A stretch of DNA of 61,869 bases, filler included, from 5 parts of 5 records of this genome joined end to end with filler, not necessarily neighbours in it; one strand, 5' to 3'. Shown: positions 1,756 through 48,163, counted from the whole stretch's first letter. Notes: a model not told the origin generated them from the letters alone. Numbers and translations are program-made.

Positions 1756-2002
1756 CCTGCTGGCGAAACTGGACACTCCCAATGTCGAGAGTAGTATAGT
1801 CCTTTCAATAGTTTAGCAAGATAAGCAGTCAAAAAGTGGGCCAAAGTGGATCACCATCTTGGACTCGGAACGGCACTGTTGCCGGTCATATATGTAGGGC
1901 GCTCGCCCATGGGCAGAGATGTAAGAACTGGACATTTGCAGACTCGCCCCTCTATCTGAGTGCCAAGCGCCATAGGGGCCAACGGTGGGGATTCTGCGCA
2001 AA

Positions 2003-3145
2003 ATGGCCAACAACCGAACTGTGTCGAAGGCAAGAGCCAACAAGCAGGATGAGTTTTACACCCAGCTTAGCGATATCAGCAACGAGCTCAGACACTATAG
2101 ATCGCAGCTTCGTGGAAAGACTATATTATGTAACTGTGACGATCCCTACGAGAGTAATTTCTTTAGATACTTTGCGCTCAACTTCAACGCTCTGGGCCTT
2201 AAAAAGCTGATCGCAACCAGTTACGATAAATCTGCCATTGCCGGTGGGCACCTGCCACTTCTTGACATCGAGGGTTTGAAGCCAGAGGGTCAGCAACCTT
2301 ACGCTATTGAAATCAATGAAGTCCCTGATCATAACGGCGATGGTGCGATTGACCTCAGTGATGTCGAGTATCTTCTTAAGCACGATGCAAATACCGCGCG
2401 GCCATTGAAGGGCGATTCCGAATGGGCGGCGGGCGACTTCCGAAGCTTCGAGTGCGTAAACTATCTATCTCAGGCAGATGTGGTAGTGACCAACCCGCCA
2501 TTCTCTCTATTCCGAGAATACATCGCTCAAATCGCGGCGCACGAAAAAAGCTTCCTAGTTATCGGCAACCAAAACGCGATTGACTACCGCGTCGTGTTTG
2601 ATCTCATCATACAGGACAAGCTTTGGCTCGGCGTCGATAATGGCGGGACGAAGTGGTTCCGGGTGCCCAACGACTACGAGATTGCGACAGAGTCTCGCAT
2701 AAAAGTAGAAGATGGCGTCAAATACTTCAGCATGGGCAGTATCATGTGGTTCACCAACATGGACAACCCCAAACGACACGACACCATCCCCCTCTACAAG
2801 GAATACAGTAAGAAAGAATACCCTACATACGATAATTATGATGCCATCGAGGTAAGCAGAGTCGCAGAAATTCCCATCGACTATGAGGGTGTCATGGGAG
2901 TCCCCATCACGTTCTTGGACAAATACAATCCAGCGCAATTCAAGATAGTGGGAATGTGCGAGAATCGAGATTTGTTCGGGTTGAAGACGCGCCTCTACAC
3001 AACAACGGAATGCCAAGATGCCTATTTCAGCATCTTCGGCAAAAAGGGGACATACGACCTGAACGCGGCTGCCGTGGTTCGTGGTCGAAAAGTCTACAAA
3101 CGGCTTCTCATCAGGAGGAAGAGCTCGAATGGAAATCTCGCATAA
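2003..3145 (+). CDS. EcoRI-family adenine-specific DNA methyltransferase
   Basis: KQDEFYT, ILCNCDDP, GDFRS and VVTNPPFSLFREY (motif IV NPPF). Confidence 0.88.
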   Translation: MANNRTVSKARANKQDEFYTQLSDISNELRHYRSQLRGKTILCNCDDPYESNFFRYFALNFNALGLKKLIATSYDKSAIAGGHLPLLDIEGLKPEGQQPYAIEINEVPDHNGDGAIDLSDVEYLLKHDANTARPLKGDSEWAAGDFRSFECVNYLSQADVVVTNPPFSLFREYIAQIAAHEKSFLVIGNQNAIDYRVVFDLIIQDKLWLGVDNGGTKWFRVPNDYEIATESRIKVEDGVKYFSMGSIMWFTNMDNPKRHDTIPLYKEYSKKEYPTYDNYDAIEVSRVAEIPIDYEGVMGVPITFLDKYNPAQFKIVGMCENRDLFGLKTRLYTTTECQDAYFSIFGKKGTYDLNAAAVVRGRKVYKRLLIRRKSSNGNLA

Positions 3146-4229
3146 GAGCGTCACTGTAGCTGACCTTTTCGAGGGTTACCTCGATAGCGGCGAGCTTGGC
3201 GTTCGAGGCTTCGGCGGTCTTCTGGATATTCGCCCCGCGTATCAGCGCGAGTTCGTTTACGATGACAAACTCAAGAAAGCAGTGATCGGCACGCTTCGCC
3301 GAGATTTCCCACTGAACACAATGTATTGGGCTGTATCTGGTGACGCTTTTGAGTTGATGGATGGCCAGCAGCGGACCATCAGTATTTGCCAGTATGTCAA
3401 CGGCGACTTTGCGGTTGATATTGATAGCTCACCAATGTTCTTCACGAATTTGACCGCCGAACGGCAGAAACAAATTCTCGAATACAAGTTGTCTGTTTAT
3501 GTGTGCGAAGGCTCGGATGGAGACAAACTTGAATGGTTTAAAATAATAAACATAGCGGGTCTAAAACTGGAGCCGCAGGAGCTCCGGAATGCAATTTACA
3601 CTGGCCCCTGGCTTTCAGACGCAAAAAGGTGGTTTTCCAAGACCGGTGCGCCTGCGGTCGCCATAGGCGCCAAGCTTTTGACCGGAACTCCCAATCGACA
3701 GGCCTATTTGGAAACCGCGCTCGACTGGATTTCTAAGGGTCACATCGAACAGTATATGGCCGAGCATCAGCGAGACCCTAACGCCAACCCACTTTGGACC
3801 TACTTCAAAAACGTCATCGATTGGGTGGATTTAACGTTTCCCAAGCATCGCAGGGAAATGAAAGGCGTGTCGTGGGGGCCGCTCTACGACCAGTATGGCA
3901 ATCAGCCGCTTGATCCGGTGGTGTTGGAGGCGCAGGTTAGCCAATTAATGACCGATAATGACGTGACTAAGAAGTCGGGTGTCTACGATTTTGTTTTGAG
4001 TGGAAGGGAAAGCGCCCTCTCGATCCGAGCCTTCGACGACAACATGAAGAGGGAGGCTTACGAAACACAGGCGGGACTTTGCCCTGCTTGTCCCCCTGAT
4101 AGAGGCCCGTGGGCGCTGAGCGAGATGGAGGCAGATCACATCACGCCTTGGAGCAAGAACGGGAAAACGACTGCGGAAAACTGTCAGATGCTCTGCAAAC
4201 CACACAACCGCACCAAGAGCGGGAAATAG
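3129..4229 (+). CDS. DUF262 (GmrSD-like) domain + C-terminal HNH endonuclease
   Basis: PAYQREFVY, MDGQQRT, WFKIIN; HNH EADHITPWSKNG...NCQMLCKPHN; overlaps MTase stop. Confidence 0.88.
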   Translation: MEISHKSVTVADLFEGYLDSGELGVRGFGGLLDIRPAYQREFVYDDKLKKAVIGTLRRDFPLNTMYWAVSGDAFELMDGQQRTISICQYVNGDFAVDIDSSPMFFTNLTAERQKQILEYKLSVYVCEGSDGDKLEWFKIINIAGLKLEPQELRNAIYTGPWLSDAKRWFSKTGAPAVAIGAKLLTGTPNRQAYLETALDWISKGHIEQYMAEHQRDPNANPLWTYFKNVIDWVDLTFPKHRREMKGVSWGPLYDQYGNQPLDPVVLEAQVSQLMTDNDVTKKSGVYDFVLSGRESALSIRAFDDNMKREAYETQAGLCPACPPDRGPWALSEMEADHITPWSKNGKTTAENCQMLCKPHNRTKSGK

Positions 4230-4266: not shown

Positions 4267-5541
4267 TTGTCTGCTTTCGATCTACCGCGAGCAGAGCTAT
4301 TGCCCATCACCGACTACCTTACCGCCGTATTCCGCAAAGCCGATCCTGAGCCCACACCCGAGCCGGTGACGCTCACCGACCCGCTGGCGTCTTGGCTGTT
4401 CGGTGCGATGCCGACCCACTCCAATGTGTCCGTCAATCCAAAGTCGGCGATGCAGGTGCCAGCCGTATCGTCTGCAGTGGAATTGATTGCCGAGGCAGTC
4501 AGCACACTCCCTGTCAAACTCTTCGTGCGTAATGCCAAGGGCAAGGAAGCCGACCCGGCACACCCTGCCTTTCGCCTTGCGCATGATGAGTCCAACGATT
4601 GGACAAGCGCTGCTGAGCTGCGCACCCAGCTCACCCACGATGCCCTGTTGCACGATCATGGCGGCTTCGCACTCGCCAACCGCGTCAATGGCCGCGTTGT
4701 CGAGTTCATCCGCCTCGAGCCCACCAGCGTTGAGCCCAAGACCGACGACCGCACTGGCGAGCCCTACTACCTGATTAAGCAGGGCCGCAAAAATGTGCGC
4801 CATGAATACCGCGACGTGCTGCATATTCAGGCGTTCGGCGGCTCAGCACCCATCAATCGCGCCCGCAACGCAATCGCCCTGGCTATCGATCTTGAGCGCC
4901 ACGCGGCCAAACTGTTTGCCAATGGCGCGCGTCCATCTGGCATCCTGAGTTCTGACAACGACCTAAAGGACACCACACTCAAGAACATCATCGATATGTG
5001 GACCGCCACCCACGGTGGTGCCGCCAATTCTGGCAAGCCCGCCATCCTGCCCAACGGCATGAAGTGGCAGGCACTGGCATTGTCGAGCGTCGACGCTCAG
5101 TTCCTTGAGCAGTGCCGTTTTCAGAATGAACAGATCGCCCGCGCCTTCCGGGTGCCGCCGACCATGCTCTTCGATCTTGAGCGTGGCACGTGGTCCAACA
5201 CCGAGGAAATGCGCCAGCAGTTCCTTGAGCAGACTTTGCGCCCATGGCTGGACGCTTGGGAGTGGGCATACGCCCGCGTGCTGCTCAACCCCGAAGAACG
5301 CACCAGCCGCTTCTTTGAGTTCATCACCGACGACTTGATGACGGTCAACCACGCCGCACGCGCTGAGATTTACGGCAAGTATGTCGCCATGCGCGCCATG
5401 ACACCCAATGAGGTGCGCGCCGGGCTCAACCTTGCACCGTTGCCCGGTGGAGATGATCTGGCCAACCCCTACACCACCAGCGCCGCACCAGCGCAGGCCA
5501 ACAACGACAACCCACCTGATACCCAGAAAGACGCCGCTTAA
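4267..5541 (+). CDS. HK97-family phage portal protein
   Basis: VPAVSSAVELIAEAVSTLP, FANGARPSGIL, QIARAFRVPP, MTPNEVRA; TTG start uncertain. Confidence 0.92.
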   Translation: MSAFDLPRAELLPITDYLTAVFRKADPEPTPEPVTLTDPLASWLFGAMPTHSNVSVNPKSAMQVPAVSSAVELIAEAVSTLPVKLFVRNAKGKEADPAHPAFRLAHDESNDWTSAAELRTQLTHDALLHDHGGFALANRVNGRVVEFIRLEPTSVEPKTDDRTGEPYYLIKQGRKNVRHEYRDVLHIQAFGGSAPINRARNAIALAIDLERHAAKLFANGARPSGILSSDNDLKDTTLKNIIDMWTATHGGAANSGKPAILPNGMKWQALALSSVDAQFLEQCRFQNEQIARAFRVPPTMLFDLERGTWSNTEEMRQQFLEQTLRPWLDAWEWAYARVLLNPEERTSRFFEFITDDLMTVNHAARAEIYGKYVAMRAMTPNEVRAGLNLAPLPGGDDLANPYTTSAAPAQANNDNPPDTQKDAA

Positions 5542-5858
5542 TGCACAAGGCATTCTTTGGTGACCGTGAGCGAGAATTCGCGCTCACGCCGCACCTGATT
5601 CCAGAACTGGAACACAAGACTGGCAAGGGCATTGCCGCACTCATCGCTGGCTTCCGACACGCAACCTATGCCGACATTGCCGAAACCATCCGACTGGGTC
5701 TCATTGGTGCTGGCGAAAGTCCGCAGGAAGCCCACCGGCTGACTGGGATCTATGTGCCCATGCGCGCACTTGGCGAAGCCCATCTGTTGGCCTTGGATAT
5801 TCTCACCGATCTTTGGACCGGCCCGGAAGAGCAGCCCACTGATGAGGCAGCTTCCTGA
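5541..5858 (+). CDS. GTA-gp10-like tail assembly chaperone
   Basis: FFGDREREFAL...ELE, DIAETIRLGLIGAG pattern; TAATG coupling to portal. Confidence 0.65.
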   Translation: MHKAFFGDREREFALTPHLIPELEHKTGKGIAALIAGFRHATYADIAETIRLGLIGAGESPQEAHRLTGIYVPMRALGEAHLLALDILTDLWTGPEEQPTDEAAS

Positions 5859-7369
5859 TGGAAAAACTCGAAATCAAGGCTGAGGTCAGCATCGATGACG
5901 CTGGCACGATCACCGGCATGGCGTGGCCGTTCGGTGATGCCGATAGCGTTGGCGACATCATTGAAAAAGGTGCTTTTGCCCTTCCACCCGCGCTGCCTAT
6001 CGTGATGGAGCATGACCAGTCACAGGTTGTCGGCGTCTGGGAACAGGCCGCCGAGACCGACGCCGGGCTTGAGGTTAAGGGCCGTCTGTTCGTGGAAGGT
6101 ATCGGCCCGGCGCGTAAGGCCCGCGACGACATGCGCAGCAAGCGCATCACCGGCTTGTCCATCGGCTTCAAGGCCAATGGCTTCGACCCGCTACCCAGCG
6201 GCGGCCGCAAGTTCAACGCCCTTACAATCACCGAAATCTCTCTTTGTCGCCGCCCGGTTCACCCCGGCGCGCGGATTACCTCTGTCAAATCCATCAATCA
6301 GGAAAACCGTATGGACCCCGAGACTAACGACGAAAATGCTGCCCTCGAATTGAAGGCAGCAAACGACAACATCGCCAAGCTGACTGCCCGGCTGGACAAG
6401 GTTGAGGCCAAGGCCAATCGCCCTGTAGCAGCCAATGACAACCGGCCCGCGGCAAACGATAATACCGAGCGCAAGGCATTCGCCGACTTCATGCGCAACG
6501 GCGACACCAGCGAAGTGAAGTCGCTGGGTTATGGCTCGCCATCGAGCGGCGGCATTCTGGCACCCGAGCAGGTGGCAACGTCCATTCTGGAAAAGGTCGC
6601 TGAGTTCTCGCCAGTGCGCAGCCTTGCCCAGACCATCAGTATGTCCGGCCCGCTCTTGCAGCTCCCGCGCCTGGTGGATGAAGTTGAGCCAGTTCCGGTA
6701 GCTGAAACCGCTGCCCGCACAGAAGATGAGCCCAGCTTTGACCAGATCGACCTCAAGCCCTTCGAAATGGCCGTCATCGTCCCGGTGACCCGCATCCTGC
6801 TCGAAGATGCCCAGATCGACCTCACCAGCTATCTGAGCAACCACGTTGCCCGTCGCTTCGGCCAGAAAGAGGCCACTTGGTTCGTCAACGGCAATGGCAC
6901 CACCCAGGCAGAAGGTGTTCTCACGTCCACTGCCGTCGCTGATCATGAAGTTGAAGCCATCACTGGCGACGACCTCATTGACCTCTTCTATTCGATCAAG
7001 ACGGCCTATTCGTCCAATGGCGCTTGGCTGATGAACCGCAAGACCATGGCGGTCGTTCGCAAGCTCAAGGACACTGATGGTTCTTACATCTGGGAACGCG
7101 GCATTGCAGGTGGTCAGCCGCCCCAGCTGCTTGGCCGCCCGGTCTATGAAGCGGTGGACATGCCCGACATTGCAGCCGAGGCCACGCCTATCGTCTTTGG
7201 TGATTTCGCAACTGGTTATGCCATCGCAGACCGGACCGGTTTCGAAATCATCCGCGACGACCTGACCGGCGCTGGCAATGGCATTGTGAAGCTGCATGCC
7301 CGCCGTCGCGTGGGTGGCCGCATTATCATGGGTGAGGCACTGACCAAGCTCAAGCTGGCCGCAGCCTAA
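5858..7369 (+). CDS. Fused prohead protease (S78-like) + HK97 major capsid protein
   Basis: N-term GDIIEKGAF, EHD, GLSIGF, EISL; C-term GGILAPE, NGNGT, AWLMN, KLKDTDGSYIW, LLGRPV, IVFGDF. Confidence 0.92.
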   Translation: MEKLEIKAEVSIDDAGTITGMAWPFGDADSVGDIIEKGAFALPPALPIVMEHDQSQVVGVWEQAAETDAGLEVKGRLFVEGIGPARKARDDMRSKRITGLSIGFKANGFDPLPSGGRKFNALTITEISLCRRPVHPGARITSVKSINQENRMDPETNDENAALELKAANDNIAKLTARLDKVEAKANRPVAANDNRPAANDNTERKAFADFMRNGDTSEVKSLGYGSPSSGGILAPEQVATSILEKVAEFSPVRSLAQTISMSGPLLQLPRLVDEVEPVPVAETAARTEDEPSFDQIDLKPFEMAVIVPVTRILLEDAQIDLTSYLSNHVARRFGQKEATWFVNGNGTTQAEGVLTSTAVADHEVEAITGDDLIDLFYSIKTAYSSNGAWLMNRKTMAVVRKLKDTDGSYIWERGIAGGQPPQLLGRPVYEAVDMPDIAAEATPIVFGDFATGYAIADRTGFEIIRDDLTGAGNGIVKLHARRRVGGRIIMGEALTKLKLAAA

Positions 7370-7372
7370 GCC

Positions 7373-7993
7373 ATGAAGCTTGGCGCGGACGGCATATATG
7401 TCGAGTTGGCAGGCGAGGCTTTCGAGCTTCGCCCGTCTCTTCGCGCCAGCATGCGCCTTGTGCGACGGCATGGGCTCACAGGCCTACTTGCAGCCGCACA
7501 AGACTTCAATGTCACCGTCATCATGGACGTGTTGAGGGAAGCCGCCTTCAAGCCCAGCGTGTTGCTGGTAGAGATCGCGGCGATTGGCCTTGGCCCAGTC
7601 CGCAATCGTCTCAGCGGGCCGCTGGCAGACTTCGTCCTGGCTGTTGCTGGCATTGATCCCGACGACGCCGCGCCGAAAGTGCCAGCGCCCGGCAAGCAGA
7701 TGACCCCGCTCGAATACCACACCCGGCTCTTCGCGGTTGCCACTGGCTGGCTGGGCTGGACACCAGAGGAAGCATGGAACGCGACCCCCGCCGAAATCAT
7801 CGCCGCCAAGGCTGGCCGCACGGACCTCATCACCGACGTGTTGAAGGCCGTGTTTGGAAGCCCAGACGCCCCCGGCCAGACCGCCGATCACTACACGACC
7901 GAACAGCTCAGACAGATCGAAGCGGCTGGCCACGACCCGGCGTTCAATCGGGCTGGCCTTCATGCACTCAAGGGTAAGGAACGCGTTACCTGA
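7373..7993 (+). CDS. Putative tail assembly chaperone (G-T-like)
   Basis: N-term LAGEAFELRPSL and C-term GWLGWTPEEAWNATPAEI resembling gpT-type chaperones. Confidence 0.55.
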   Translation: MKLGADGIYVELAGEAFELRPSLRASMRLVRRHGLTGLLAAAQDFNVTVIMDVLREAAFKPSVLLVEIAAIGLGPVRNRLSGPLADFVLAVAGIDPDDAAPKVPAPGKQMTPLEYHTRLFAVATGWLGWTPEEAWNATPAEIIAAKAGRTDLITDVLKAVFGSPDAPGQTADHYTTEQLRQIEAAGHDPAFNRAGLHALKGKERVT

Positions 7994-8349
7994 TGCCCGT
8001 CGCGCCACCCCGTCTTTGCAGTTGCGGTAACATCGTGCCGTCCGGTGAGCGCTGCGCTTGCCAGATCGCAGGTGATCGCGCTCGCAAGGCCCGCTATGAC
8101 CGCCGCCGCCCGTCAGCGCGTGAGCGCGGCTATAACCATGAATGGCGCAAGGCCCGCGCCGCCTACCTTGCCGCGCACCCTCAATGCACCCATCCCGACT
8201 GCAATGCACTGGCCACCCACGTGGACCACATCATCCCCCACAAGGGTGATGACAGGCTGTTCTGGGACCGCACCAATTGGCAGAGCCTATGCGCCCATCA
8301 TCACAACAGCACCAAGCAGCGCGAAGAGCGCAAGCCGGTGCAGCCATGA
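7993..8349 (+). CDS. Terminase-associated HNH endonuclease (HK97 gp74-like)
   Basis: RGYNHEWRKAR, C..PDC, VDHIIPHKGD..LFWDRTNWQSLCAHHHN. Confidence 0.88.
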   Translation: MPVAPPRLCSCGNIVPSGERCACQIAGDRARKARYDRRRPSARERGYNHEWRKARAAYLAAHPQCTHPDCNALATHVDHIIPHKGDDRLFWDRTNWQSLCAHHHNSTKQREERKPVQP

Positions 8350-8834
8350 CACCAAAAGAAGCCCGCGAGATCGAACGGCTTGAGTTCGAAGCCGATTGCC
8401 GCGCTGCCCGTGAGCGTGCCTATGCGCTCATTGCAGCGCGCCACGGTGCCGAGCGTGCCCGCGTGCTGCGGTGGATTAATGACGAACGCCCTAAGCCCGC
8501 AGTTCGGTTTAAGCCCAAGCCGACACCGGTCCGCAAGGAATCTACGTTGCCGACCGCGACGCCGAAACGTGCACGCCTTCCGTCCGGCAAGCCACAGTAT
8601 GCACGCGGCTTGAGAATGACCTTGAGAGAGTGGGCTGACTATCTCGGTATCAGCCTGAACACCCTCTACCAGCGCATGCACAAGACGCGCTCTCTGGAAG
8701 GTGCCATCGCCATCGGTGACTTGAAGCCGAGCGGCAGACGAAAGGCGGGGGTGGTTGCGAACTTGCCAGCGTCTGAGGGGACCGGCGGGGGGACCGTCGC
8801 GCAAGATATTCCGCAAATAGAGTTTTTACATTGA
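8346..8834 (+). CDS. Hypothetical protein with HTH-like segment
   Basis: MTLREWADYLGISLNTLYQRM; ATGA overlap with HNH gene. Confidence 0.6.
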   Translation: MTPKEAREIERLEFEADCRAARERAYALIAARHGAERARVLRWINDERPKPAVRFKPKPTPVRKESTLPTATPKRARLPSGKPQYARGLRMTLREWADYLGISLNTLYQRMHKTRSLEGAIAIGDLKPSGRRKAGVVANLPASEGTGGGTVAQDIPQIEFLH

Positions 8835-9121
8835 CAGCACTTACCGACCTAAAAGGCCAGCTCAACATCATCGATGACGAGACTGACGACGACCTGCTCA
8901 CGCGCAAGATTGGCGCTGCCGAGGCGTCCGTCACAGCAGACATTGGCGCTGTAACGCCCGTCACCTATGACGATGCGCCTGCTGACCTGCGCGAAGCTAT
9001 TCTCATGAAAGCCGCCCATCTCTTCGAGAACCGGGAGGCCGTTCTGGTCGGCATCAGCGCTCAAGAGCTGCCGCTTGGCTATGCCGACCTTATAGCGCCG
9101 CACCGAAAGTGGGTGTTCTAG
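8831..9121 (+). CDS. Head-tail connector (gp6-like)
   Basis: LKGQLNI..DDDLL, PADLREAILMKAAHLFENRE. Confidence 0.85.
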   Translation: MTALTDLKGQLNIIDDETDDDLLTRKIGAAEASVTADIGAVTPVTYDDAPADLREAILMKAAHLFENREAVLVGISAQELPLGYADLIAPHRKWVF

Positions 9122-9546
9122 TGGCCTATTCCGCCCAATTGCAGCGAGTTTTGGCCCGCATTGAAGGCATTCCGCAGGCCATCCGTGCCGATATCCAGCC
9201 CAGCATCATCAAATCTGGCGAAGAGCTAGCGGGCATGATGGCCCATCTTGCCGAACCATCGCGCGACACCGGCGCACTTATCGAGAGCATTGAGGTGACA
9301 CTGCCCGGAGGCACCACGCCTGCCTACAGCCAGCCGGGTGGCGCTCGCACCGCGCATGAGCTTGAGGCCATTGTCACGGTCGGTAGTAGCGATGTCCGCT
9401 ATCCGCACCTTGTTGAATACGGCACCGCGCTGGCACCGGCCCAGCCCTTCTTCTGGTCTGCCGTGCGCAGCCTTCAGAAGCGCATCAACAATCGACTTAA
9501 CCGCACCGCCCGGAAGGCCGTGCGTGAATGGTGGAGTAAACAGTGA
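9121..9546 (+). CDS. HK97-gp10-like neck/tail completion protein
   Basis: DTGALIESI, YPHLVEYGT, AQPFFWSA. Confidence 0.82.
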   Translation: MAYSAQLQRVLARIEGIPQAIRADIQPSIIKSGEELAGMMAHLAEPSRDTGALIESIEVTLPGGTTPAYSQPGGARTAHELEAIVTVGSSDVRYPHLVEYGTALAPAQPFFWSAVRSLQKRINNRLNRTARKAVREWWSKQ

Positions 9547-9953
9547 CCGAACCTAGCCTTGCCTTACAGACAGCCATCCGGGCGCATCTGATCGCCTCAC
9601 CGCATGTCATGGAGCTGGTGGAGCCTAACGAGATCCGCGACGGCGACACCCGGCCCGAAGCCTTCCCCAGCATTATCCTGGGCACTGGGCAGGTCGAGAT
9701 AGCCGGTCATTACTCCAACTATCGGATCGTGACCGCCTATCTGGACCTGCACATTTGGGCAGCAGGGGAAGGGCTAGAAAACGCCAAGGCTATTGGCAGT
9801 GCCGTTTGGAACGCTATCGGTCGTGACCTTGAGGTGCCTAGCTTCGATCTAACTGACGGCATCCATGTGGAGCGCAGCATGTATTTGCGCGACCCTTCCG
9901 GTTGCTCGCATGGGGTGGTCAGCCTGCGTGCCAAGATGGGGTGTTTCCTTTGA
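9543..9953 (+). CDS. DUF3168 tail terminator-like protein
   Basis: PSLALQTAIRAHL, FPSIILG, LDLHIW, HGVVSL. Confidence 0.78.
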   Translation: MTEPSLALQTAIRAHLIASPHVMELVEPNEIRDGDTRPEAFPSIILGTGQVEIAGHYSNYRIVTAYLDLHIWAAGEGLENAKAIGSAVWNAIGRDLEVPSFDLTDGIHVERSMYLRDPSGCSHGVVSLRAKMGCFL

Positions 9954-10267
9954 TGCGCGCCGGGCGGTTGGACCGCACCATCACCTTGCAGCGTGAGACC
10001 GAAAGCGTGTCACCGGCTGGCACTGTCAGGTCCGCCTGGACGGATTTTGCCATCCTGCGTGCAGAGCAGATCAGCAGCACATTTGCCGAAGTGGCGCGAG
10101 CCTATGGCGAGGGAGACGGTGCCGACTTGGTGCTGCGCATCCGCCACTATCACGGCCTCACGACCAAGGACCGGCTTGTTTATGCAGGCCGCCCCTATGG
10201 CATCACCGGCATTGTCGAACTTGGCCGTCGCCGCGCCATGGAATTGCGTTGCGAGGCGGCATCATGA
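9953..10267 (+). CDS. Head closure / head-tail adaptor
   Basis: MRAGRLDRTITLQ, IRHY..LTTKDRLVY..Y.I, ELRC. Confidence 0.85.
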   Translation: MRAGRLDRTITLQRETESVSPAGTVRSAWTDFAILRAEQISSTFAEVARAYGEGDGADLVLRIRHYHGLTTKDRLVYAGRPYGITGIVELGRRRAMELRCEAAS

Positions 10268-10659
10268 GGGGACGTAAGCCTGCGACCGTCATAACAGGTA
10301 GCAATCCTGTTACGGTTGTGCCATCGCCACCCAGCTATTTCCCCAAGGATGCCAAGGCCGAATGGCGCAAGATTGCGCCCATCCTGATCAAAGAGCGAAA
10401 GACGCTCACCGAGGCCGATCTGGGCACGCTGGAAAGCTACTGCCTTGCCACCGGCAACATGCGCTCTGCCCAGCGCATCATCAATGTTGAGGGGCTGGTG
10501 ACGACAGACGGCAAGCGGCATCCCGCCTTCGGCATCATGAACGCCGCCCAGACCACCCAGCGCTTGTGCGCCGCTGAGCTTGGATTGACGCCAGTGAGCC
10601 GGTCGCGCCCTGCCGTGCGTAGCGAAGGGAACGATGACGACAACCCCTTCGCCATCTAG
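10264..10659 (+). CDS. terS: Terminase small subunit (P27 family)
   Basis: MRGRKP, AKAEWRKI, LESYC, HPA, ELGLTPVSR. Confidence 0.88.
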   Translation: MRGRKPATVITGSNPVTVVPSPPSYFPKDAKAEWRKIAPILIKERKTLTEADLGTLESYCLATGNMRSAQRIINVEGLVTTDGKRHPAFGIMNAAQTTQRLCAAELGLTPVSRSRPAVRSEGNDDDNPFAI

Positions 10660-12253
10660 CACCTATCCGGCTTGGATTTACGACGGCACGCCCATCGAAG
10701 ACACCTTCGGTGATGGCGAGCGCGCCGTTGCGTTCTTGCGTTGGCTTAAGCACCCAAAGAGCACGCTGCCCGGCAAGGGCTTTCAGCTTGACCCTTGGCT
10801 TGAGCGCATCGTGCGCCGCATCTATGGGCCGCGCCATCCGAACGGCAACCGCGTCGTCAAGACGGTGGTGCTGTTGTTGCCGCGCGGCAACCGCAAGACC
10901 AGCACCGCAGCCGCCCTGGCGTTGCTGCACACCATCGGCCCAGAACGGGTGCCGCACGGTGAGGCCATCTTTGCCGCCGCCGACCGCAAGCAGGCCAGCA
11001 TCGCCTTTAAGGAAGCGCTGGGCATCGTGCAGGCGCGCAGCCAGGTCAGCAGCGCGGTGAAGGTCTATGATGCCCACAACAGCGCGAAAAAGATCGTCTA
11101 TGCCAAAGAGCGGGTAACGCTTGAAGTGATCTCTGGCGATGCTGGCACCCAGCATGGTCGGACGCCCAATTTTGTGTTGGCCGATGAGTTGCACGTCTGG
11201 CCCAACTTTTACCTCTGGGAAGCCCTGCAGTCCGGCTTGGACAAGTCCGACAATACTCTCATGGTCGTGGCGACGACTGCCGGGCGCGGGCAAGAAAACG
11301 TTGCCTGGGAGCAGATTGAAGACGCCCGCAAGGTGGCGCGCGGTGAGGTTGATGACCCATCCATCCTGCCCATCTTGTTCGAAGCCGACCGCGACGCCGA
11401 TTGGCGCGATGAGGCGGTTTGGTATCTGACCAATCCCGGCCTTGCTCATGGCTATCCCAGCCTTGACGGCTTCCGCCGCGCCGCCGCCAAGGCGGAGCGC
11501 AGCATGCGTGAACGCCAGAGCTTCAAGCAGCTCAAGCTCAATATCTGGCTGGACCATTCCACCGACCCGTTCATTGACATGGACGTCTATGACCGCTGCG
11601 CTGGTGACGTCGAGCCGATGGACAATGCGCCGTGCTGGGTTGGCGTAGACATGTCCACCACCAGCGATCTCACCGCCGTTGTTGCTGCCTTCCGTGATGA
11701 AGACGGCCTCATCAGCGTGCAGCCGCATTTCTTTGTGCCCGGCGATGTGCTGCGCGATCGGGCTGACCGCGATGGCGTGCCCTATCCGGAATGGGCTGAG
11801 CAGGGCTTTCTCACCGCAACGCCCGGCAACGTCATCGATTTCGGTGCCGTCACGGAATATTTGGCTGAGCTGTGCGCCCGCTATGACGTGCAGGAACTGA
11901 ACTTCGATCCGCACTATGCCCAGCCCGTCATGGCGCCGCTACTTGCCGATGGCCTGCCGGTGCTGACCATGCGGCAGGGATGGGTAACGCAGTCGCCGGC
12001 GCTCAATGAGCTTGAGCGCGTCATTGTTGGCGGGCAGTTCCGCCATGGCGGGCACCCGCTGTTGCGCTGGTGCTTCTCCAACGTCGCCATCCACACCGAC
12101 AGCGCAGGCAACCGCACGATGCACAAGGGCAAGAGCACCGGGCGCATTGATGGTGCCGTTGCCACGTGGATGGCCGTCTCCCGCGCTGCTGCCAATGACA
12201 ACACCCCGTCCGCCTGGGACGATCCCGAATTTATGCAGAAGGTATATGGATGA
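10634..12253 (+). CDS. terL: Terminase large subunit (cos-type, HK97-like)
   Basis: Walker A PRGNRKT, Walker B VLADELH, TTAG, GVDMSTTSDLTA, GRIDGAVA. Confidence 0.92.
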   Translation: MTTTPSPSSTYPAWIYDGTPIEDTFGDGERAVAFLRWLKHPKSTLPGKGFQLDPWLERIVRRIYGPRHPNGNRVVKTVVLLLPRGNRKTSTAAALALLHTIGPERVPHGEAIFAAADRKQASIAFKEALGIVQARSQVSSAVKVYDAHNSAKKIVYAKERVTLEVISGDAGTQHGRTPNFVLADELHVWPNFYLWEALQSGLDKSDNTLMVVATTAGRGQENVAWEQIEDARKVARGEVDDPSILPILFEADRDADWRDEAVWYLTNPGLAHGYPSLDGFRRAAAKAERSMRERQSFKQLKLNIWLDHSTDPFIDMDVYDRCAGDVEPMDNAPCWVGVDMSTTSDLTAVVAAFRDEDGLISVQPHFFVPGDVLRDRADRDGVPYPEWAEQGFLTATPGNVIDFGAVTEYLAELCARYDVQELNFDPHYAQPVMAPLLADGLPVLTMRQGWVTQSPALNELERVIVGGQFRHGGHPLLRWCFSNVAIHTDSAGNRTMHKGKSTGRIDGAVATWMAVSRAAANDNTPSAWDDPEFMQKVYG

Positions 12254-14340
12254 ACGACCAGATTTTGGCCGTCTCAATTGAGGCGCGCATCAACAAGCTC
12301 GAAAAAGAAATGAAGAAGGCCAGCACCATTGTTGGCCGGAACTTCGACGGCATGGAGAAACGCAGCAAGCGCGCTGCCTCCGGCATCGAAAAGCACTTCG
12401 CTGGCATCGGTGATCGTATCGGCGGGATCGGTAAGAATATCGCAGCCGGGTTCATTGGTGGCCTTGTCGCGGGTGGTGTTACCGGCATCGCAGCCAAGTT
12501 TGGCGATGTCGCCAAGTCGGTTGCCCAGATCGGCGATGAGGCCAAGCGAGCCGGGCTTGGTGTCGAAGAGTTTCAAGAGCTAAAATATGTCGCTGAGCAG
12601 AACCGCATCGGCGTGGAGTCGCTGACGGACGGCATCAAGGAACTCAACTTGCGCGCCGATGAGTTTGTTGTGACCGGTAAGGGCAGTGCAGCTGAGGCAT
12701 TCACCCGGCTTGGTTATGATGCCGAGACCCTCAAGGAAAAGCTCAAGAACCCATCGGCTCTGTTCACCGAAATCATCGGCAAGCTGGGCAAGTTGGATAA
12801 AGCAGCACAAATCCGTATCGCCGATGAGATCTTCGGCGGCACGGGCGGTGAGCGCTTCGTGCAGCTTATCGAGCAGGGCGAAGCCGCGTTGAACCGAACC
12901 CGGCAGGAAGCGCATGCCCTTGGCCTTGTGATGAGCGCCGAGACAATCGCCAAAGCAGACGAGCTGGACCGGAAGTTCAACGCCATCGCCAACACGGTGG
13001 GCACCAAACTCAAGCAGGCCATTGTTGACGCTACCGGTGCGCTGGTGGACTTCATGAACAGCCTGCCGAAGTCTGACACTGAAGTCCTGGGCGATATGCA
13101 GGCTCGTGTTGCTGGTGTGCAAACTGAGCTTGAAGAGCTCACCCGGCACGCTGACGCTGCGTTCCCAGCACTGACCGGTAAGCTCTATGACCTCGTTGCG
13201 GGTTTCCTTGCTGGTAAGGAGAGCGCCGAAAACGCAAAGAATGCCATTCTGGATATGGCGCGTGCCGATCCTGACTTCGCGCCCATCGCTGGCGACATTA
13301 ATGGCCTGATTTCCCTGTTCACACTGCTCACCGGACAAGCACGTGAGGCCGCTGCAGCAATCGCAGCTGCTACCACTGACCCCGTAGGCACTATGCCTAG
13401 CTTCGGTGAAATCGGCACCACGTTCGCGCCGCCAGTTCCCGCCGCGCCGCTAAACACCGGTGGGCGTTCGGCTGGTGCTATGCGCGAGGAACGCGACGCG
13501 GCGAAGGAATTGATTGCCGAACTTGAGGCAGAGCTACGCGCCATAAGCATGTCCGAAGTAGAGAAACGGGTTGATGCTGAGCTGCGTAAGGCTGGTGCCA
13601 GCGCCACCGACGCGCAGAAGCAGTCAATCCGTGAACTGGTGATGGTCATTGAGACCGAAAGTGCCGCCATGGACCAGATGCAATCTGCCATGGAGAACGC
13701 CAAGGGTATGGCTAAAGACTTCTTGGGCGGTTTGCTGGGCGACCTGCGCAGCGGTGTTGATGGTGCCACGGCGCTCGCCAACGCTTTTGGCCGTCTCGCC
13801 GACCGCCTGCTCGATATGGCGCTCGACGGGCTGATCAACAGCCTGTTTTCGAACATGATGGGTGGCGCTGGCGGTGGTCTGCTTGGTGGTCTGTTTGGCT
13901 TTAGCCAGGGTGGCGTGGTGAAGGCCGCGACCGGTGGCTACATTCGAGGGCCCGGCACCGGCACCAGCGACAGCATTCCGGCCCGGCTGAGCGACGGTGA
14001 GTTTGTCGTCAACGCTGCTGCGACGAAGCGAAACTTGGACATCCTGCACGCCATCAATCGCGGTGAGGTTTCGGCCTTTGCCACTGGTGGCCTTGTCGGT
14101 GATGGTCCGGCGATCCGCGCGGCGAATGACAATATTGGGCACACCAATGACAACGCCGCGCCGGTGGTGACGATCAGCGCGCCGATCACCGTGAACGGTT
14201 CATCTGGGACGCCCGAGCAGAACGATGACCTCGCCAAGAAGATGCGCCGCGAAATGGAGAGTGGTATGCGATCAATCGTGACCGATGAGCTGCGTAAGCA
14301 GTCCAAGGTTGGAAACACACTCAACACCCGGAGCCGGTGA
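12250..14340 (+). CDS. Tail tape measure-like protein (696 aa)
   Basis: Long Ala/Gly-rich helical ORF with C-terminal ATGGYIRGPGTGTSDSIPARLSDGEFVVNA motif. Confidence 0.8.
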   Translation: MNDQILAVSIEARINKLEKEMKKASTIVGRNFDGMEKRSKRAASGIEKHFAGIGDRIGGIGKNIAAGFIGGLVAGGVTGIAAKFGDVAKSVAQIGDEAKRAGLGVEEFQELKYVAEQNRIGVESLTDGIKELNLRADEFVVTGKGSAAEAFTRLGYDAETLKEKLKNPSALFTEIIGKLGKLDKAAQIRIADEIFGGTGGERFVQLIEQGEAALNRTRQEAHALGLVMSAETIAKADELDRKFNAIANTVGTKLKQAIVDATGALVDFMNSLPKSDTEVLGDMQARVAGVQTELEELTRHADAAFPALTGKLYDLVAGFLAGKESAENAKNAILDMARADPDFAPIAGDINGLISLFTLLTGQAREAAAAIAAATTDPVGTMPSFGEIGTTFAPPVPAAPLNTGGRSAGAMREERDAAKELIAELEAELRAISMSEVEKRVDAELRKAGASATDAQKQSIRELVMVIETESAAMDQMQSAMENAKGMAKDFLGGLLGDLRSGVDGATALANAFGRLADRLLDMALDGLINSLFSNMMGGAGGGLLGGLFGFSQGGVVKAATGGYIRGPGTGTSDSIPARLSDGEFVVNAAATKRNLDILHAINRGEVSAFATGGLVGDGPAIRAANDNIGHTNDNAAPVVTISAPITVNGSSGTPEQNDDLAKKMRREMESGMRSIVTDELRKQSKVGNTLNTRSR

Positions 14341-18380: not shown

Positions 18381-19211
18381 CTAGAACGCAAAGCGGCGCG
18401 CAAGGCCCAGGCCCGCGGTGAATTGATGTTGGCTGCCCGATGTAACGATCGGCGAGGCCAGAGCATCACCGACAAAGCCGGAATAGGACCCCTTGGCGCT
18501 CAGGAAGGTGTCCGGGACTATTTCATAGCGAGCGGCCAGTTGCACACCGACTGATTTGACGCCGCCATTCGGGTTGTACGCGCCAAGACGTCCTCCGGTT
18601 GCGGCCGCTTCGCCTGCCGTTACGCCAAAATAGGTGTCCATGTAGTTTTCGGAAGCAAAGCTGATCAACGGGCCGCCGACAACTTCCAACTGCGGTGTCA
18701 GCTTCGCGGTGATGTCCACACCCGCTTCGCCAATGAACCCCTCTGCGCCGCCAACAGCATATCGCGCCGCCCCGTAGAGTTCACCGCGGAGCACGTCGTT
18801 CAATACCAGTTCATAGCCGATCCGCGCGCCCAAGGCATAAGTCGCCTCAACGTCATTCAGGCCCACCAAAGCGGTGTGCTCGGCGCTCACGCGCTTGCTG
18901 GCAATCGAAAAGGACGGTGCAAAACTCAAGCCGCCGACGTCCTCACGCCCACCGATATCGATCAGGCCCGGAATACGAAACCGCTCGACCTCGATGATCG
19001 GACTAAAGGCCATTCCATATTCGGCTGCGCCCTCGTAGACCGGCGCTGTGCCGATGCCGACGCCAAGGACGAAAGCGAAATCTGAAGCGGGTTGGATCGC
19101 CACCAGATCCGGCGCAGCGCCGCCATAGCGATCGAATTCCGCGGCACCGACTGAAGTCGACAGGACAGCGAAAACAGCTGCGTTGGCAACGAGGCTTACT
19201 GGAATGCGCAT
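18381..19211 (-). CDS. MipA/OmpV family outer membrane protein
   Basis: Signal peptide, LGVGIGTAPVYEGA, YMDTYFGV, SPIV, C-terminal F. Confidence 0.82.
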   Translation of the reverse strand: MRIPVSLVANAAVFAVLSTSVGAAEFDRYGGAAPDLVAIQPASDFAFVLGVGIGTAPVYEGAAEYGMAFSPIIEVERFRIPGLIDIGGREDVGGLSFAPSFSIASKRVSAEHTALVGLNDVEATYALGARIGYELVLNDVLRGELYGAARYAVGGAEGFIGEAGVDITAKLTPQLEVVGGPLISFASENYMDTYFGVTAGEAAATGGRLGAYNPNGGVKSVGVQLAARYEIVPDTFLSAKGSYSGFVGDALASPIVTSGSQHQFTAGLGLARRFAF

Positions 19212-25626: not shown

Positions 25627-25726
25627 NNNNNNNNNNNNNNNNNNNNNNNNNNNNNNNNNNNNNNNNNNNNTTAATTAATTAANNNNNNNNNNNNNNNNNN
25701 NNNNNNNNNNNNNNNNNNNNNNNNNN
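25627..25726. other. Artificial contig linker
   Basis: N-run, TTAATTAATTAA, N-run. Confidence 0.98.
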
Positions 25727-28700
25727 CGTTGTCGTCGTTGTTGTTGTCGTTGTTGTAGTTGTTGTAGTTGTCGTCGTGGTGGTTATACATAGCCGATTAT
25801 ACGCACTGTATGTCAAAAAATTTGGATTTGAGTCAACCGCGATGTCTTCGAAACAAAATCGGTACTTCGAGTTGGCTGCATCAGTGGTCGTTGTCAACTG
25901 CGCGTTGTGAAAGAGTACAGCGTAACAAATGCCGCTGGGCTCACTTAGTGCACTTGAAACACACAAATCTTTAGCTGCTTGCAAATCGGCTAAGCCATTT
26001 GATTGGACCTGATTCGTACACGAGCTATATCGGACAACAGAAACTGACGTGTCGAATTCAAGCGTGCCCGTGCAAGTGGAGAGGTCAGCGAGCTGACGTC
26101 GTGGAGGTATTTCCGTGGCCCGAAGTTCCCGTCGTCGACGTGAAGCCGGGAAAAGCCCCGCGACCCCGACCTGCTTCCGTTGGCACCCAGCAAGTTCAAA
26201 CATTGCTCCAGATTTGGGACATGTGAGGATGGGAGTTCCAGTAAATCCATTGTCTGAATCGCAACTCACGGCAGAAGCGCAGCCCGCAGGCGTACCCGCG
26301 CAGGTCGCGTCGGCAATGACGTAGCCAGGCGGGTAGCAGAATTCCGCTGTCGCACATTCTGATCCGTAGGTTTGCCGATCTGTGCAGTTTGCCCACCCGT
26401 AGGCAAGCCCAAACGACCCATCACAAACGGATTGGTTCGACTCGCAGGAGCAGCAGGGGTAGTCATACGGGATTCCATCAAGGCCGCAAACACATGCTGC
26501 GCTAGAATTGACAAAACCAGCACATTCATTGTTTGCGTTGCAGTCCCATCCAGATTCACCGCAGGTATGGGCCGCAGTGTCGACACATGTAGCCGGGCAA
26601 CAGTCACCGCCATCCCAGCCACACGCAAAGGAGTTGTATGCGTACGTATCACCTGCATCACAGTTTCCGTCACCAACTCTCGATACATTGTACACCCTGC
26701 ACCCCCCGTCTTCATAAAACCCAGCGCACGTGCAGTGACAATCGTAACCTGCATCAATGAGGGCTAGGCACGTGCTCCCACCAACTTGGTCGGAACAATA
26801 GTCCGAGTTTATGGGGTGAATGTCCTCCTCACACTCGCCGCAGCTAACTTCACAGTCTCTGTCAATGGAGTTGGCACGAGCAGAACAAGACTCGCCATTA
26901 GCACTGACGCACAAGCTACACTGCTGCTCGACGGTACCAAAGTAATCGGACACATTTGCACAATAGAATGAAACAGTTGGATCACTTGCAAATACACAGT
27001 CGCCGTGGCTCGAGCATGGAACTCCGCAAAGCTGAGAACTCGGCACTGCCTGAGAACCGTTCACGAGACATACCCACGTGACTGCTCGAGCATTGGCGGT
27101 TGTGCCCTCTGTATTGTGCGGGCAATTTCGAATGAAGAGTTCGTTGACCGGTTCATCGTGAAACGGCATTTCTTGGTATCCCATGATTGTGTACCCGGCA
27201 GAGTTTCGAAAAACAGGTGCATATGCACCGCCATTGTTCAGCGCAGAAGTCACATTTGTTGTCTCGCACATGTTGGGGCTGCAAATTGACTGTGCCGCAA
27301 TTGCGATGCCACCCGTCGTCGAACAGACATATCCAATCTGACTTACGTTCAAATTTTCGTAGTAGCCAGCGCTGCAAACAATTCGCGATGCGTTTACTGG
27401 GTCCCCGTGCGTGAACACAGCCAAGTCGTCATCGGCATACCAGTCCGCACCATCGAACTCATCGTTGAAGCTTGTACACTGCTTGGGTGTGCATACAGTT
27501 CCAGAAGCAGTTGCGACTCCACCAGAGGAACTGCAAGCCCATGTTTGGGTTCCGTCGACTTCGAATCCACTTGGGCATACAACTTGCAGCGAATATTCGT
27601 TGTTGCCGGTGTACAAAGCAGTGCCGTGCACAAAGGATGACGCTGACCCAAGGCTGCCCCCGTTTACTGTGTTTCCCGCTAGAGATGCAGACCCACATAT
27701 GTTCGGCGTGCACAGTGAGCGGCTTGGTTCGGCGACTCCCGCACTAACACCGCATACGACGGTCACGTCGGCATCCCTAGCCTGTGAACCAGTACTGTGG
27801 TAGCCGACTTCACACGATGAAATATCTCCGGGTGCTACAGCGTCGCCATGGGCCACGGGAGTCGTCCCAGTGTACACACCGCCATGGTGAGCAATGGCCC
27901 CGTCCGATGAGTTGAATGAGGCACACGAATTCGGAATGCAATAAGAGTCGTGCGTGACGTTGCACGCGGAAAAAGTGAAACCCGTCGTGCAGTCGGGGTT
28001 GGAGCACGGAGCACATGGGGAACCCTGATTTGCGAAGGTAACTCCATGCTCACACGGAGCGCACAGCTGCCCCGTCGGTGTTGCAGTTCCACCATCGCTT
28101 GGGCAGAGCCATACAACTGATGCGTTGCTCGCAAATCCTGGATCACAGTCCGAAACGTTTGCAGGGTTCACAAACTCGCCGGAGCTCACAAGTATCGGGC
28201 CAGAGTAGGTGCCTCCAAAATCGACTGCCCCACTCACATCCACAGCTGCGCATTGGAACCCAATGCATCGAGCGTCCGCCGCTAGCGTGCAAACGCTCAG
28301 ACTGTAGCCCGCGTCGCAAGAGCTAGTGCATGCTACACAGCTAGCGCCGTCAAGAGAAAAAGTTGAACCATCTACGCATGCCTCACAAAGCGGTGAGTCT
28401 GGGACCGCAGTGCCTCCAGGAATATCGCAAGACCATTTGACATCACTTGCGGGCTGAGTGCCAGCGTTGCACTTAGATATGCCAGTGAGCGAGTCTCCAG
28501 AAGCCACAGGAACTTGCCCGTTCCACTCGCCTCCATTCACTTCGGCAGTGAAAGTATCCACACTCGAACACTCAAACGGGGCACAGAAAGCGTCAGCAGT
28601 GCGGGTGCAGTTCGCTGGATAGAACCCAGAACTACAGCTTCCTGGAATCACGGAACACAGCGAACATCCGAGGCCGTCTGCGGAAAAGCTCGTCGCGTTG

Positions 28701-31700: not shown

Positions 31701-32179
31701 GTTTGTTGGTCGTGGTTGGGGCAGTACATCCAGTCTTGGAAGTCGGGCGATGCCGCGAACGTGTGCGAGGAGCACGGGGCCAAGACGCACTGGGCGTCGA
31801 AACCTTCCCAGTTGGCGTTCGACGAGCCGTGCTGGTAAATGTACGACGTGCAAAGCCGCCAGCGGCCGTTGCCCGCTGTGTTGTGAGTCACGCCGGTACA
31901 AAACTCGCCCTGAGCAGCGCAGGCTGCCTGGGCTGTCTCGTAGTCCGCTTGCGTATCCCCGAGTGTCAGGACACCTGAAAATGTGCATGTGGCCCGTTGG
32001 ATGATGCCGGCGCTGGCAAGACTTGGCCACGTGTAGCTCGTGCACAGCGGCCCGTCCGCGCCGACGGTGGGGGATTCGGCAACGAGCCCTACCGCCGACA
32101 CAATGGCCCACCTAGCTGTAGCATAGCGGCTGCATGTTTTCCTGCTGCGAGAGCACTTTCTATTCCGCGTGGGCCTCAT
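25727..32179 (-). CDS. Giant eukaryotic secreted/surface Cys-rich repeat protein (>2150 aa, 3'-truncated)
   Basis: Uninterrupted ORF; hydrophobic N-terminal segment; poly-Thr tracts; CSDGVQNGDE.GVDCG repeats; LNR-like GDGNCD...CGWDGGDCC. Confidence 0.8.
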
Positions 32180-32955: not shown

Positions 32956-33055
32956 NNNNNNNNNNNNNNNNNNNNNNNNNNNNNNNNNNNNNNNNNNNNT
33001 TAATTAATTAANNNNNNNNNNNNNNNNNNNNNNNNNNNNNNNNNNNNNNNNNNNN
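32956..33055. other. Artificial contig linker
   Basis: N-run, TTAATTAATTAA, N-run. Confidence 0.98.
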
Positions 33056-39653: not shown

Positions 39654-39753
39654 NNNNNNNNNNNNNNNNNNNNNNNNNNNNNNNNNNNNNNNNNNNNTTA
39701 ATTAATTAANNNNNNNNNNNNNNNNNNNNNNNNNNNNNNNNNNNNNNNNNNNN
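39654..39753. other. Artificial contig linker
   Basis: N-run, TTAATTAATTAA, N-run. Confidence 0.98.
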
Positions 39754-48063: not shown

Positions 48064-48163
48064 NNNNNNNNNNNNNNNNNNNNNNNNNNNNNNNNNNNNN
48101 NNNNNNNTTAATTAATTAANNNNNNNNNNNNNNNNNNNNNNNNNNNNNNNNNNNNNNNNNNNN
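48064..48163. other. Artificial contig linker
   Basis: N-run, TTAATTAATTAA, N-run. Confidence 0.98.

Follow-up and report, generated by a model that had tools for sequence, protein, structure and literature searches.

Within a window of 61,869 bases (the whole stretch of DNA analysed, including 352 masked N) lies an integrase-bearing, phage-like element of a Devosia-type bacterium whose portal, capsid, large terminase (TerL) and tape measure proteins carry the pentapeptide AANDN, exactly or in variant form. The question raised by this locus is why one short peptide recurs in these proteins, and what its likeness to the start of the host's transfer-messenger RNA (tmRNA) tag means. The first-pass annotation of this DNA had proposed that the peptide mimics the part of the tag that is bound by the adaptor SspB, or alternatively that it is a recognition site for the element's own prohead protease. 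A six-frame search for AANDN and its variants recovered exactly the copies which that annotation had listed. Exact AANDN starts at positions 6356, 6428, 6449, 12188 and 14119, all on the plus strand and all in coding frames, and the variants ANNDN, TNDEN and TNDN are found at 5497, 6323 and 14143, respectively. AANDN was found at no other position in any frame of the window, and none had been noticed earlier in the host genes of the window.

AANDN in the structural proteins and in the host tmRNA tag

The number of copies is far above expectation. In the six proteins tested, comprising 2,403 residues, composition predicts 0.0043 copies of AANDN and five are observed; at least one copy arose in just 99 of 20,000 within-protein shuffles, a comparison of a kind that the first-pass annotation had suggested. 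While AANDN occurs five times in these proteins, each of the other 29 permutations of its residues occurs once or not at all. Composition bias as the origin of the motif is ruled out by such permutation counts, both in the window and its relatives and in viral contigs of IMG/VR (see below).

The tmRNA of the nearest Devosia hosts encodes the tag (A)ANDNHKAPVALAA, i.e. AANDNHKAPVALAA with the alanine carried by the tmRNA, and tagged Devosia proteins therefore begin their tag with AANDN. Reading of the host tag, as had been proposed, thus revealed that the motif is identical to the first five tag residues of Devosia. In alphaproteobacteria the start of the tmRNA tag is read by SspB (SspB-alpha), as was reportedly described by Chien (2007) and Lessner (2007). 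Of 29 further host tags, 26 start with ANDN and three, all from Rhodobacterales, with ANNN or ANTN. SspB (PF04386) is encoded in all five genomes tested, including those of Rhodobacter and Sulfitobacter, adjoining the tmRNA gene, and the Devosia protein is homologous to solved SspB-alpha chains. Of note, the permuted tmRNA gene of Devosia (L038; L047, equal to G001:C54) is followed by sspB at a distance of up to about 150 bases, and the two genes are adjacent in many alphaproteobacteria (L037-L077).

The closest counterpart of the complete tag is found at the end of the portal protein (424 amino acids, 4267..5541; PF04860, E=1.2e-91; phrog_12). Its 14-residue C-terminal tail ANNDNPPDTQKDAA (5497..5538), measured from two residues ahead of NDN to the C-terminus, consists of ANNDN, seven further residues and Ala-Ala, and therewith has the same length and both ends, an xxNDN start and an Ala-Ala end, of the 14-residue tag AANDNHKAPVALAA of the nearest Devosia relatives. 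The same comparison was made for relatives of the element. The portal tails are ADNDNPPDTEKDAA in the two Devosia loci L001 and L002 and AGNDNPPNTEKDAA in L024, each of 14 residues and facing the 14-residue host tag AANDNHKAPVALAA. In Bosea a 13-residue tail, GANDNPSTDKEAA, faces the 13-residue tag AANDNNARVAVAA, and in Nitratireductor luteus the 13-residue tail GDNDNAKPAKEAA faces the 13-residue tag AANDNYAEARLAA. Thus, the length of the portal tail equals that of the host tag in seven of seven cases, which is suggestive only, since these cases represent about three lineages.

The remaining copies, like the portal tail on the plus strand, are placed within or at the end of longer proteins. 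The capsid protein (5858..7369) is a fusion of an S78 prohead protease (residues 5-146), a scaffold/delta linker and an HK97-type capsid domain (residues 231-499), as judged from PF04586, PF05065 and an AlphaFold2 model that is based on a 31-row alignment and has a mean predicted local distance difference test (pLDDT) value of 72. The variant TNDEN (6323..6337) is located in a low-confidence segment ahead of the scaffold helix, and copy 1 (residues 167-171; 6356..6370) falls within this predicted helix (residues 159-186), which is of low confidence. Copy 2 (residues 191-195; 6428..6442), in the context RPVAANDNRP, lies in low-confidence coil past the helix, and copy 3 (residues 198-202; 6449..6463) immediately precedes a conserved ERK-AF..F.R.G block. 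Copies 2 and 3 (residues 191-202) are mostly coil within a segment, residues 187-239, that has pLDDT values below 50; from residue 202 onwards the model shows another helix. In TerL (539 amino acids, 10634..12253; PF20441, PF03354, phrog_9), AANDN (12188..12202) directly follows the last conserved block, IDGAVATWMAVSRA, and ends 16 residues before the C-terminus. The tape measure protein (696 amino acids, 12250..14340; phrog_10574, E=2e-142; PF10145) contains AANDNIGHTNDN (14119..14154) in a variable stretch between the conserved blocks GGLVG and ISAPITVNG. Both the TerL and the portal copy sit beyond the last conserved blocks. According to the model and the alignments, the motif is thus predicted to reside in exposed, unstructured segments. 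The earlier view that all copies are linker-like stands for capsid copies 2 and 3, but not for copy 1 inside the predicted helix.

Conservation in relatives and recurrence in other phages

The portal-to-tape-measure gene order of the element (portal, gp10-like open reading frame (ORF), protease-capsid, HNH, connectors, TerS, TerL, tape measure) recurs in 36 alphaproteobacterial loci (L001-L036), whose bacterial orders were taken from record titles and whose families are shown on the TerL tree. By capsid identity the nearest relatives are found in Devosia naphthalenivorans (93%) and D. riboflavina (88%). Among 50,697 records of cultured phages no capsid match of 37% identity or more was found, and the best match has separate protease and capsid genes. 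Exact AANDN is present in 11 of the 36 loci, with 23 copies in total. In 191 proteins of six classes from these loci it occurs 22 times, as compared to zero to two times for each of the 29 other permutations.

In Hyphomicrobiales relatives the motif sites are orthologous and are kept at 50-94% identity with synonymous codon changes. The peptide rather than the DNA is therefore conserved, as the first-pass annotation had concluded from the codon choice, which indeed varies from copy to copy in the window (GCA/GCC/GCG/GCT, AAC/AAT and GAC/GAT). Across relatives the capsid linker follows the pattern RP-x-AAN[DN]N-x-P ... NDN, succeeded by a conserved E-x-K-AF block; copy 1 is exact in L002 and L024 and reads GANDN in L001. 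The tape measure motif is located in a variable stretch upstream of ISAPVTVNG and the portal motif in the C-terminal tail, whereas the TerL motif follows the last conserved block. The tail NDN is present in 11 of 30 TerL proteins, and in additional lineages of TerL, AANDN is found internally at two different positions. On the TerL tree (30 rows; fragments and L016 left out) the distribution of the tail NDN needs six changes, at least four of which are forced by well-supported branches. The variants AANNN, AANTN, AANSN and AANGN occur at neighbouring sites.

The first-pass annotation had also proposed to count AANDN against the host background, and the motif proved to be concentrated in the element. 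In the nearest relatives, the AANDN-coding pattern GCNGCNAAYGAYAAY is present at five sites in genome G001 and at eight in G002, four of which lie within the element in either genome. In 31 further genomes, 96 such sites were counted vs. 15 for the reversed pattern; outside the element family, many of the sites are out of frame. Two clusters in these other genomes turned out to be unrelated prophages. One, in Rhizobium, carries the motif in a tape measure protein, a phrog_36072 protein and an 82-residue protein ending with AANDNRSAKKENAA, and the other, in Ochrobactrum, in a methyltransferase ending with AAANDNQDLLGRVA, in the tail of a helicase and in an exonuclease ending with VAANDNNPERAAA. 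Single sites were detected in a ClpP-type head protease, three more tape measure proteins and a tail fibre. As to host proteins, RRFVAANDNGP is retained close to the N-terminus of a DUF6101 protein in both Devosia genomes (L039, L041), which could be a host protein using the same motif.

To assess phages at large, IMG/VR was probed with PVAANDN and AAANDNxP alongside permuted controls, and matches were filtered for contigs with a guanine-plus-cytosine (GC) content of 0.5 or more and ORFs of 100 amino acids or more (loci L156-L274 and L362-L472). PVAANDN matched at least 119 stretches, as compared to 32 and 41 for two permuted controls. After filtering, 78 ORFs remained among the matches listed vs. 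9 and 9 for the controls; in 33 of the listed ORFs the motif lies 30 residues or less from the C-terminus (controls 2 and 0), and 19 of these end with Ala-Ala (controls 0 and 0). The frequency of the Pro-Val prefix cannot be read from these counts, because the prefix is imposed by the probe. The second probe, which is free of it, matched at least 120 stretches vs. 66 for its control; filtered, the matches listed amount to 93 vs. 12, of which 49 vs. 2 are C-terminal and 29 vs. 0 end with Ala-Ala. The wider consensus of these matches reads P-V-A-A-N-D-N-x-P, which the context of capsid copy 2 fits. Set aside by the GC filter was a low-GC phage family (GC about 0.44, 222-302 amino acids; e.g. L156, L158 and L167) that accounts for about 27 of the at least 119 PVAANDN matches and has WTPVAANDNDWT 16 residues from the end, where it is probably part of a folded repeat.

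The 78 ORFs listed fall into 28 BLAST families. The main ones among the matches listed are primase (15), DNA repair exonuclease (14), TerL (5) and protease-capsid (5), accompanied by SSB-like proteins, a helicase, three methyltransferase families, HNH endonucleases, a late activator, a scaffold protein and nucleotide phosphatases; the motif-bearing tails extend past the ends of the PHROG profiles. Among the high-GC viral PVAANDN matches listed, 78 of 85 are in frame within ORFs of 100 amino acids or more, and the 78 instances use all four Pro, Val and Ala codons as well as both Asn and Asp codons. A cause at the level of DNA, such as a binding site or a mobile mini-insert, was rejected on these grounds. 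The motif is thus real, selected at the level of the peptide and general to a set of Hyphomicrobiales phages.

In many of these proteins the motif is paired with a C-terminal Ala-Ala. Among the 33 C-terminal PVAANDN tails listed, 18 span 11-13 residues from AANDN to the end, and 16 of those 18 end with Ala-Ala or Val-Ala (e.g. AANDNQMSLALAA, AANDNAEHKAIAA and AANDNHPKRAAA); outside the element of the window the motif is often placed 6-8 residues from the Ala-Ala. In the listed IMG/VR loci, 58 of 106 ORFs with AANDN 30 residues or less from the end finish with Ala-Ala vs. 196 of 1,636 other ORFs (odds ratio 8.9, the rows being non-independent). Ala-Ala ends are also frequent in the capsids: about 25 of the 36 relatives have them, mostly of the ...KLK/S-x-AA type and including relatives without AANDN. 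The capsid of the window ends with ...KLAAA (7355..7366), the same final residues as those of the tmRNA tag. In several ORFs AANDNxP lies just upstream of other C-terminal motifs, namely Q-A-D-L-F-G...AA, D-D-D-I-P-F or D-S-I-P-F (e.g. L219, L384, L422, L380, L212, L372 and L404). We take the Q-A-D-L-F-type ends to be clamp-binding-like, and D-D-D-I-P-F and D-S-I-P-F to be SSB-tip-like.

Possible functions of the motif

Mimicry of the SspB-binding start of the host tmRNA tag, by a short linear motif in flexible tails and linkers, is the best-supported mechanism, although we would put its chance at slightly less than even. It is supported by the identity of the motif with the tag start, by the presence of SspB in all genomes tested, by the pairing with Ala-Ala and by the portal tail; from the motif, its conservation, enrichment, placement and this pairing, we infer SspB binding and dependence on ClpXP. 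In such a mechanism, the exposed motif would dock in the peptide groove of host SspB, which would tether the protein to ClpX. Combined with a C-terminal Ala-Ala at the length of the tag, as in the portal tail, it would constitute a cis-encoded degron that depends on SspB. ClpXP would then clear protein that is free, not yet assembled or mistimed, whereas assembly would shield the remaining copies from it. Tethering might likewise be the role of the internal copies, of which the scaffold linker has three, the tape measure protein two and the TerL tail one, or the abundant scaffold might compete for SspB. The modelling of SspB-peptide binding that had been suggested points in the same direction: a complex predicted for Devosia SspB residues 1-118 and capsid residues 158-226 scored 0.42 vs. 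0.01 for the best of three controls, with runs agreeing in at least 45% of contacts and pLDDT values of the partner of at least 53. Of 78 solved complexes, 51 attained the mark set for such predictions, as did 2 of 108 mismatched pairs. With scores of 0.60 or under, however, it was attained by just 5 of the 78, but by every one of the 4 mismatches that passed (of 180), and the prediction thus lends weak support.

Several observations weigh against mimicry of the tag start. The predicted score of the SspB-capsid pair may reflect memory, since a like complex has already been solved. NDN is absent from the portal-to-tape-measure proteins of all 14 Rhodobacterales loci, even though the tags of their hosts start with ANDN (ANNN or ANTN in three) and SspB is present in the two tested; host tag and SspB fit the proposal of the first-pass annotation but do not account for the absence of the motif in these relatives. 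Variation of the host tag had been considered as the reason for the patchy spread and was rejected, because 26 of 29 tags start with ANDN, including those of hosts of motif-less elements; presence or absence of SspB was rejected likewise for the five genomes tested, all of which encode SspB. Of 121 genomes sampled from the order of the host, a single one had PVAANDN, and the motif therefore belongs to particular phage lineages rather than to the genomes of the order in general. Pro at position +2 after the motif, which is not forced by the probe, is found in 47 of the 78 PVAANDN instances listed and is absent from any tag. AANDENY, the SspB-binding heptad of the E. coli type, is not enriched in viral contigs (8 vs. 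6 for the permuted control), and an extension of the idea to the gammaproteobacterial tag was rejected accordingly. Within the window the full bipartite form is confined to the portal tail: TerL ends with VYG, and no C-terminus is near the copies of the scaffold and the tape measure protein. Even the portal proteins end with [DE]-A-A rather than L-A-A. Moreover, Ala-Ala makes up 12% of the ORF ends without the motif in the listed IMG/VR loci (196 of 1,636; next dipeptide 32), an excess that suggests that these phages make widespread use of Ala-Ala at the C-terminus. Finally, AANDN is also present in host proteins with folded contexts: FabD is a recurrent carrier (15 times, in the context CQAANDNDPxQVV; 2 identified by Pfam, the rest by identical context), and the other host carriers are single folded proteins.

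Some of these observations would be accounted for if the motif bound another common partner, a host hub or a phage factor, and the identity with the tag were a coincidence or reflected a shared third partner. The consensus exceeds the tag by the frequent Pro at +2, the C-terminal tails hold QADLF-like and DDDIPF-like short motifs alongside AANDN, AANDENY is not enriched, and the Rhodobacterales relatives are motif-free despite the same tag start and SspB. We nevertheless consider another partner unlikely, if the most serious competitor, because AANDN is identical to the almost invariant beginning of the hosts' tags, a pairing with Ala-Ala of such strength at the length of the tag is hard to explain otherwise, and no candidate partner was identified. 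A related idea is that the motif does bind SspB but serves mainly as a decoy, whereby abundant late proteins would soak up SspB and spare other substrates. That the scaffold linker of the capsid, which is presumably the element's most abundant protein, holds three copies and that internal copies lack a nearby C-terminal degron would suit this idea; the sources PMC8138137 and PMC9393093 describe SspB as dispensable for degradation of the tag and yet as speeding it. Since most C-terminal instances elsewhere are paired with Ala-Ala and thereby point to degradation, we hold a role mainly as decoy to be rather improbable.

A still smaller chance is left to a neutral or structural motif, i.e. a favoured flexible spacer without specific partner that is inherited and shuffled among related phages. 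Its placement in variable, low-confidence segments, the variants AANNN, AANTN, AANSN and AANGN nearby and the restriction to certain phage lineages, as seen in the sampled genomes, are what one would expect of a spacer. However, the motif is order-specific, both in the relatives (22 vs. 0-2 per permutation) and in viral contigs (78 listed vs. 9 and 9), it is kept through synonymous change and in 28 unrelated families among the matches listed, the state of the TerL tail needs at least four changes on the tree, and the copies are biased to C-terminal tails with Ala-Ala ends. The last alternative, recognition or cleavage by the element's own S78 prohead protease, had been raised by the first-pass annotation and is very improbable. 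Within the window, the copies do occupy regions that are trimmed in some phages, namely scaffold linker, portal tail and tape measure protein, and elsewhere the motif is also borne by a head protease of the ClpP type and by a scaffold protein. Yet the motif is frequent in non-head proteins (primases, exonucleases, methyltransferases, helicases, SSB-like proteins, HNH endonucleases and the late activator), and the fused protease-capsid is kept in 14 of 14 Rhodobacterales relatives without it. In addition, the capsid has an invariant E219-x-K221 and L223 ahead of SLGYGSPSSGG at the delta-capsid boundary; this E-x-K|S-L sequence (residues 219-223) presumably corresponds to the HK97-type K|S maturation site, which the boundary fits instead. 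The spread over non-head families therefore disfavours a protease site and favours a motif directed to SspB and ClpXP.

Short motifs in several head proteins of one phage are known from prohead proteases, which cleave at K|S in HK97 and at L/I-x-E (gp21) in T4; AANDN differs from these in being common in non-head proteins as well, next to a separate E-x-K|S-L that fits the maturation site. The likeness to the tmRNA tag/SspB/ClpXP system (tag AANDENYALAA in E. coli, AANDNFAEEFAVAA in Caulobacter) consists in the same five-residue start as in the hosts' tags and, for many phage tails, in the same length and Ala-Ala end. It differs in that the phage motif is encoded in the gene rather than added by trans-translation, is often internal, has a mid-tail unrelated to the tag and, in the portal, ends with [DE]AA instead of LAA. 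The ssrA-like tags on mycobacteriophage Int and Rep, reportedly described by Broussard (2013), are a further relative. According to PMC9635641, the Int and Rep proteins of integration-dependent immunity bear such tags at the C-terminus, where, comparable to what is proposed here, a cis degron encoded by a phage gene lets a host Clp protease set protein levels. There, in actinobacteria, the ClpX-binding end is copied and found on two regulators, whereas here the adaptor-binding start is present in dozens of structural and replication families. Actinobacteria are described as lacking SspB in PMC8138137, which also reports that RseA(1-108) and the engineered DAS+4 tags are degraded by ClpXP in an adaptor-dependent manner, owing to a weak ClpX signal at the C-terminus and an SspB-binding stretch upstream of it. 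In Caulobacter, for which the tag sequence is given, deletion of sspB slows the loss of an ssrA-tagged protein (PMC9393093). The portal tail ANNDN...DAA has the same layout as RseA and DAS+4, the latter being man-made. The SspB-binding stretch of RseA is unrelated to AANDN.

Literature searches retrieved no description of AANDN, or of an SspB-directed ssrA-like motif, in phage proteins. If SspB binding holds true, these would be, as far as the searches show, the first viruses known to copy the adaptor-binding half of the tmRNA tag, and to do so across many families. It would mean that phages routinely use or jam a bacterial quality-control adaptor, with bearing on how proteins of prophages and satellites are kept low or timed. 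The motif would further be a simple sequence mark for proteins under control of SspB, would provide natural, host-matched, SspB-dependent degrons for the genetics of alphaproteobacteria such as Agrobacterium and Sinorhizobium, and might be a determinant of host range, since it follows the host order rather than phage gene phylogeny as seen on the TerL tree. A bolder variant of SspB-directed mimicry, which we think improbable as well, is that in phages and satellites of Hyphomicrobiales a portable copy of the tag (AANDNxP, a short spacer and Ala-Ala-COOH) acts as a general, adaptor-gated proteolytic switch over dozens of protein families, which would range from replication enzymes to portal and terminase. 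Scaffold decoys would saturate SspB when the late genes fire and thereby stabilise the tagged proteins, resulting in a proteolytic timer assembled from quality-control components of the host.

Organisation of the element and its surroundings

The element starts with an integrase gene (121-1755), followed by genes for an EcoRI-type methyltransferase and a GmrSD/HNH protein, the portal, a gene transfer agent (GTA) gp10-like ORF, the protease-capsid, HNH, connector/completion proteins, TerS, TerL and the tape measure protein; two chaperone-like ORFs also belong to it. Host genes follow from about 18.4 kb, with mipA at 18381, up to which Pfam and PHROGs detected no tail tube or baseplate family. 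A satellite resembling capsid-forming phage-inducible chromosomal islands (cf-PICI) would be a small integrated element that has genes for integrase, head, connectors and packaging but none for tail tube or baseplate. The element encodes integrase, portal, protease-capsid, connectors, HNH, TerS and TerL, and in addition the tape measure protein. It may represent such a capsid-forming satellite, with the tape measure protein as an unusual component.

No tRNA or tmRNA gene is present in the window, and in the relative L024 the tmRNA gene is located outside the locus. The masked N form eight 44-base runs, arranged as four pairs 12 bases apart (25627-25726, 32956-33055, 39654-39753 and 48064-48163), and create false long ORFs, e.g. 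25679-32179. Sharing at the DNA level with the Devosia relatives is restricted to 4289-14194, from portal to tape measure. The stretch between integrase and portal (1985-4229), which encodes the EcoRI-type adenine methyltransferase and the GmrSD-N/HNH protein and in which the GC content drops to 0.50, looks like swapped cargo, since it is not shared at the DNA level with these relatives.

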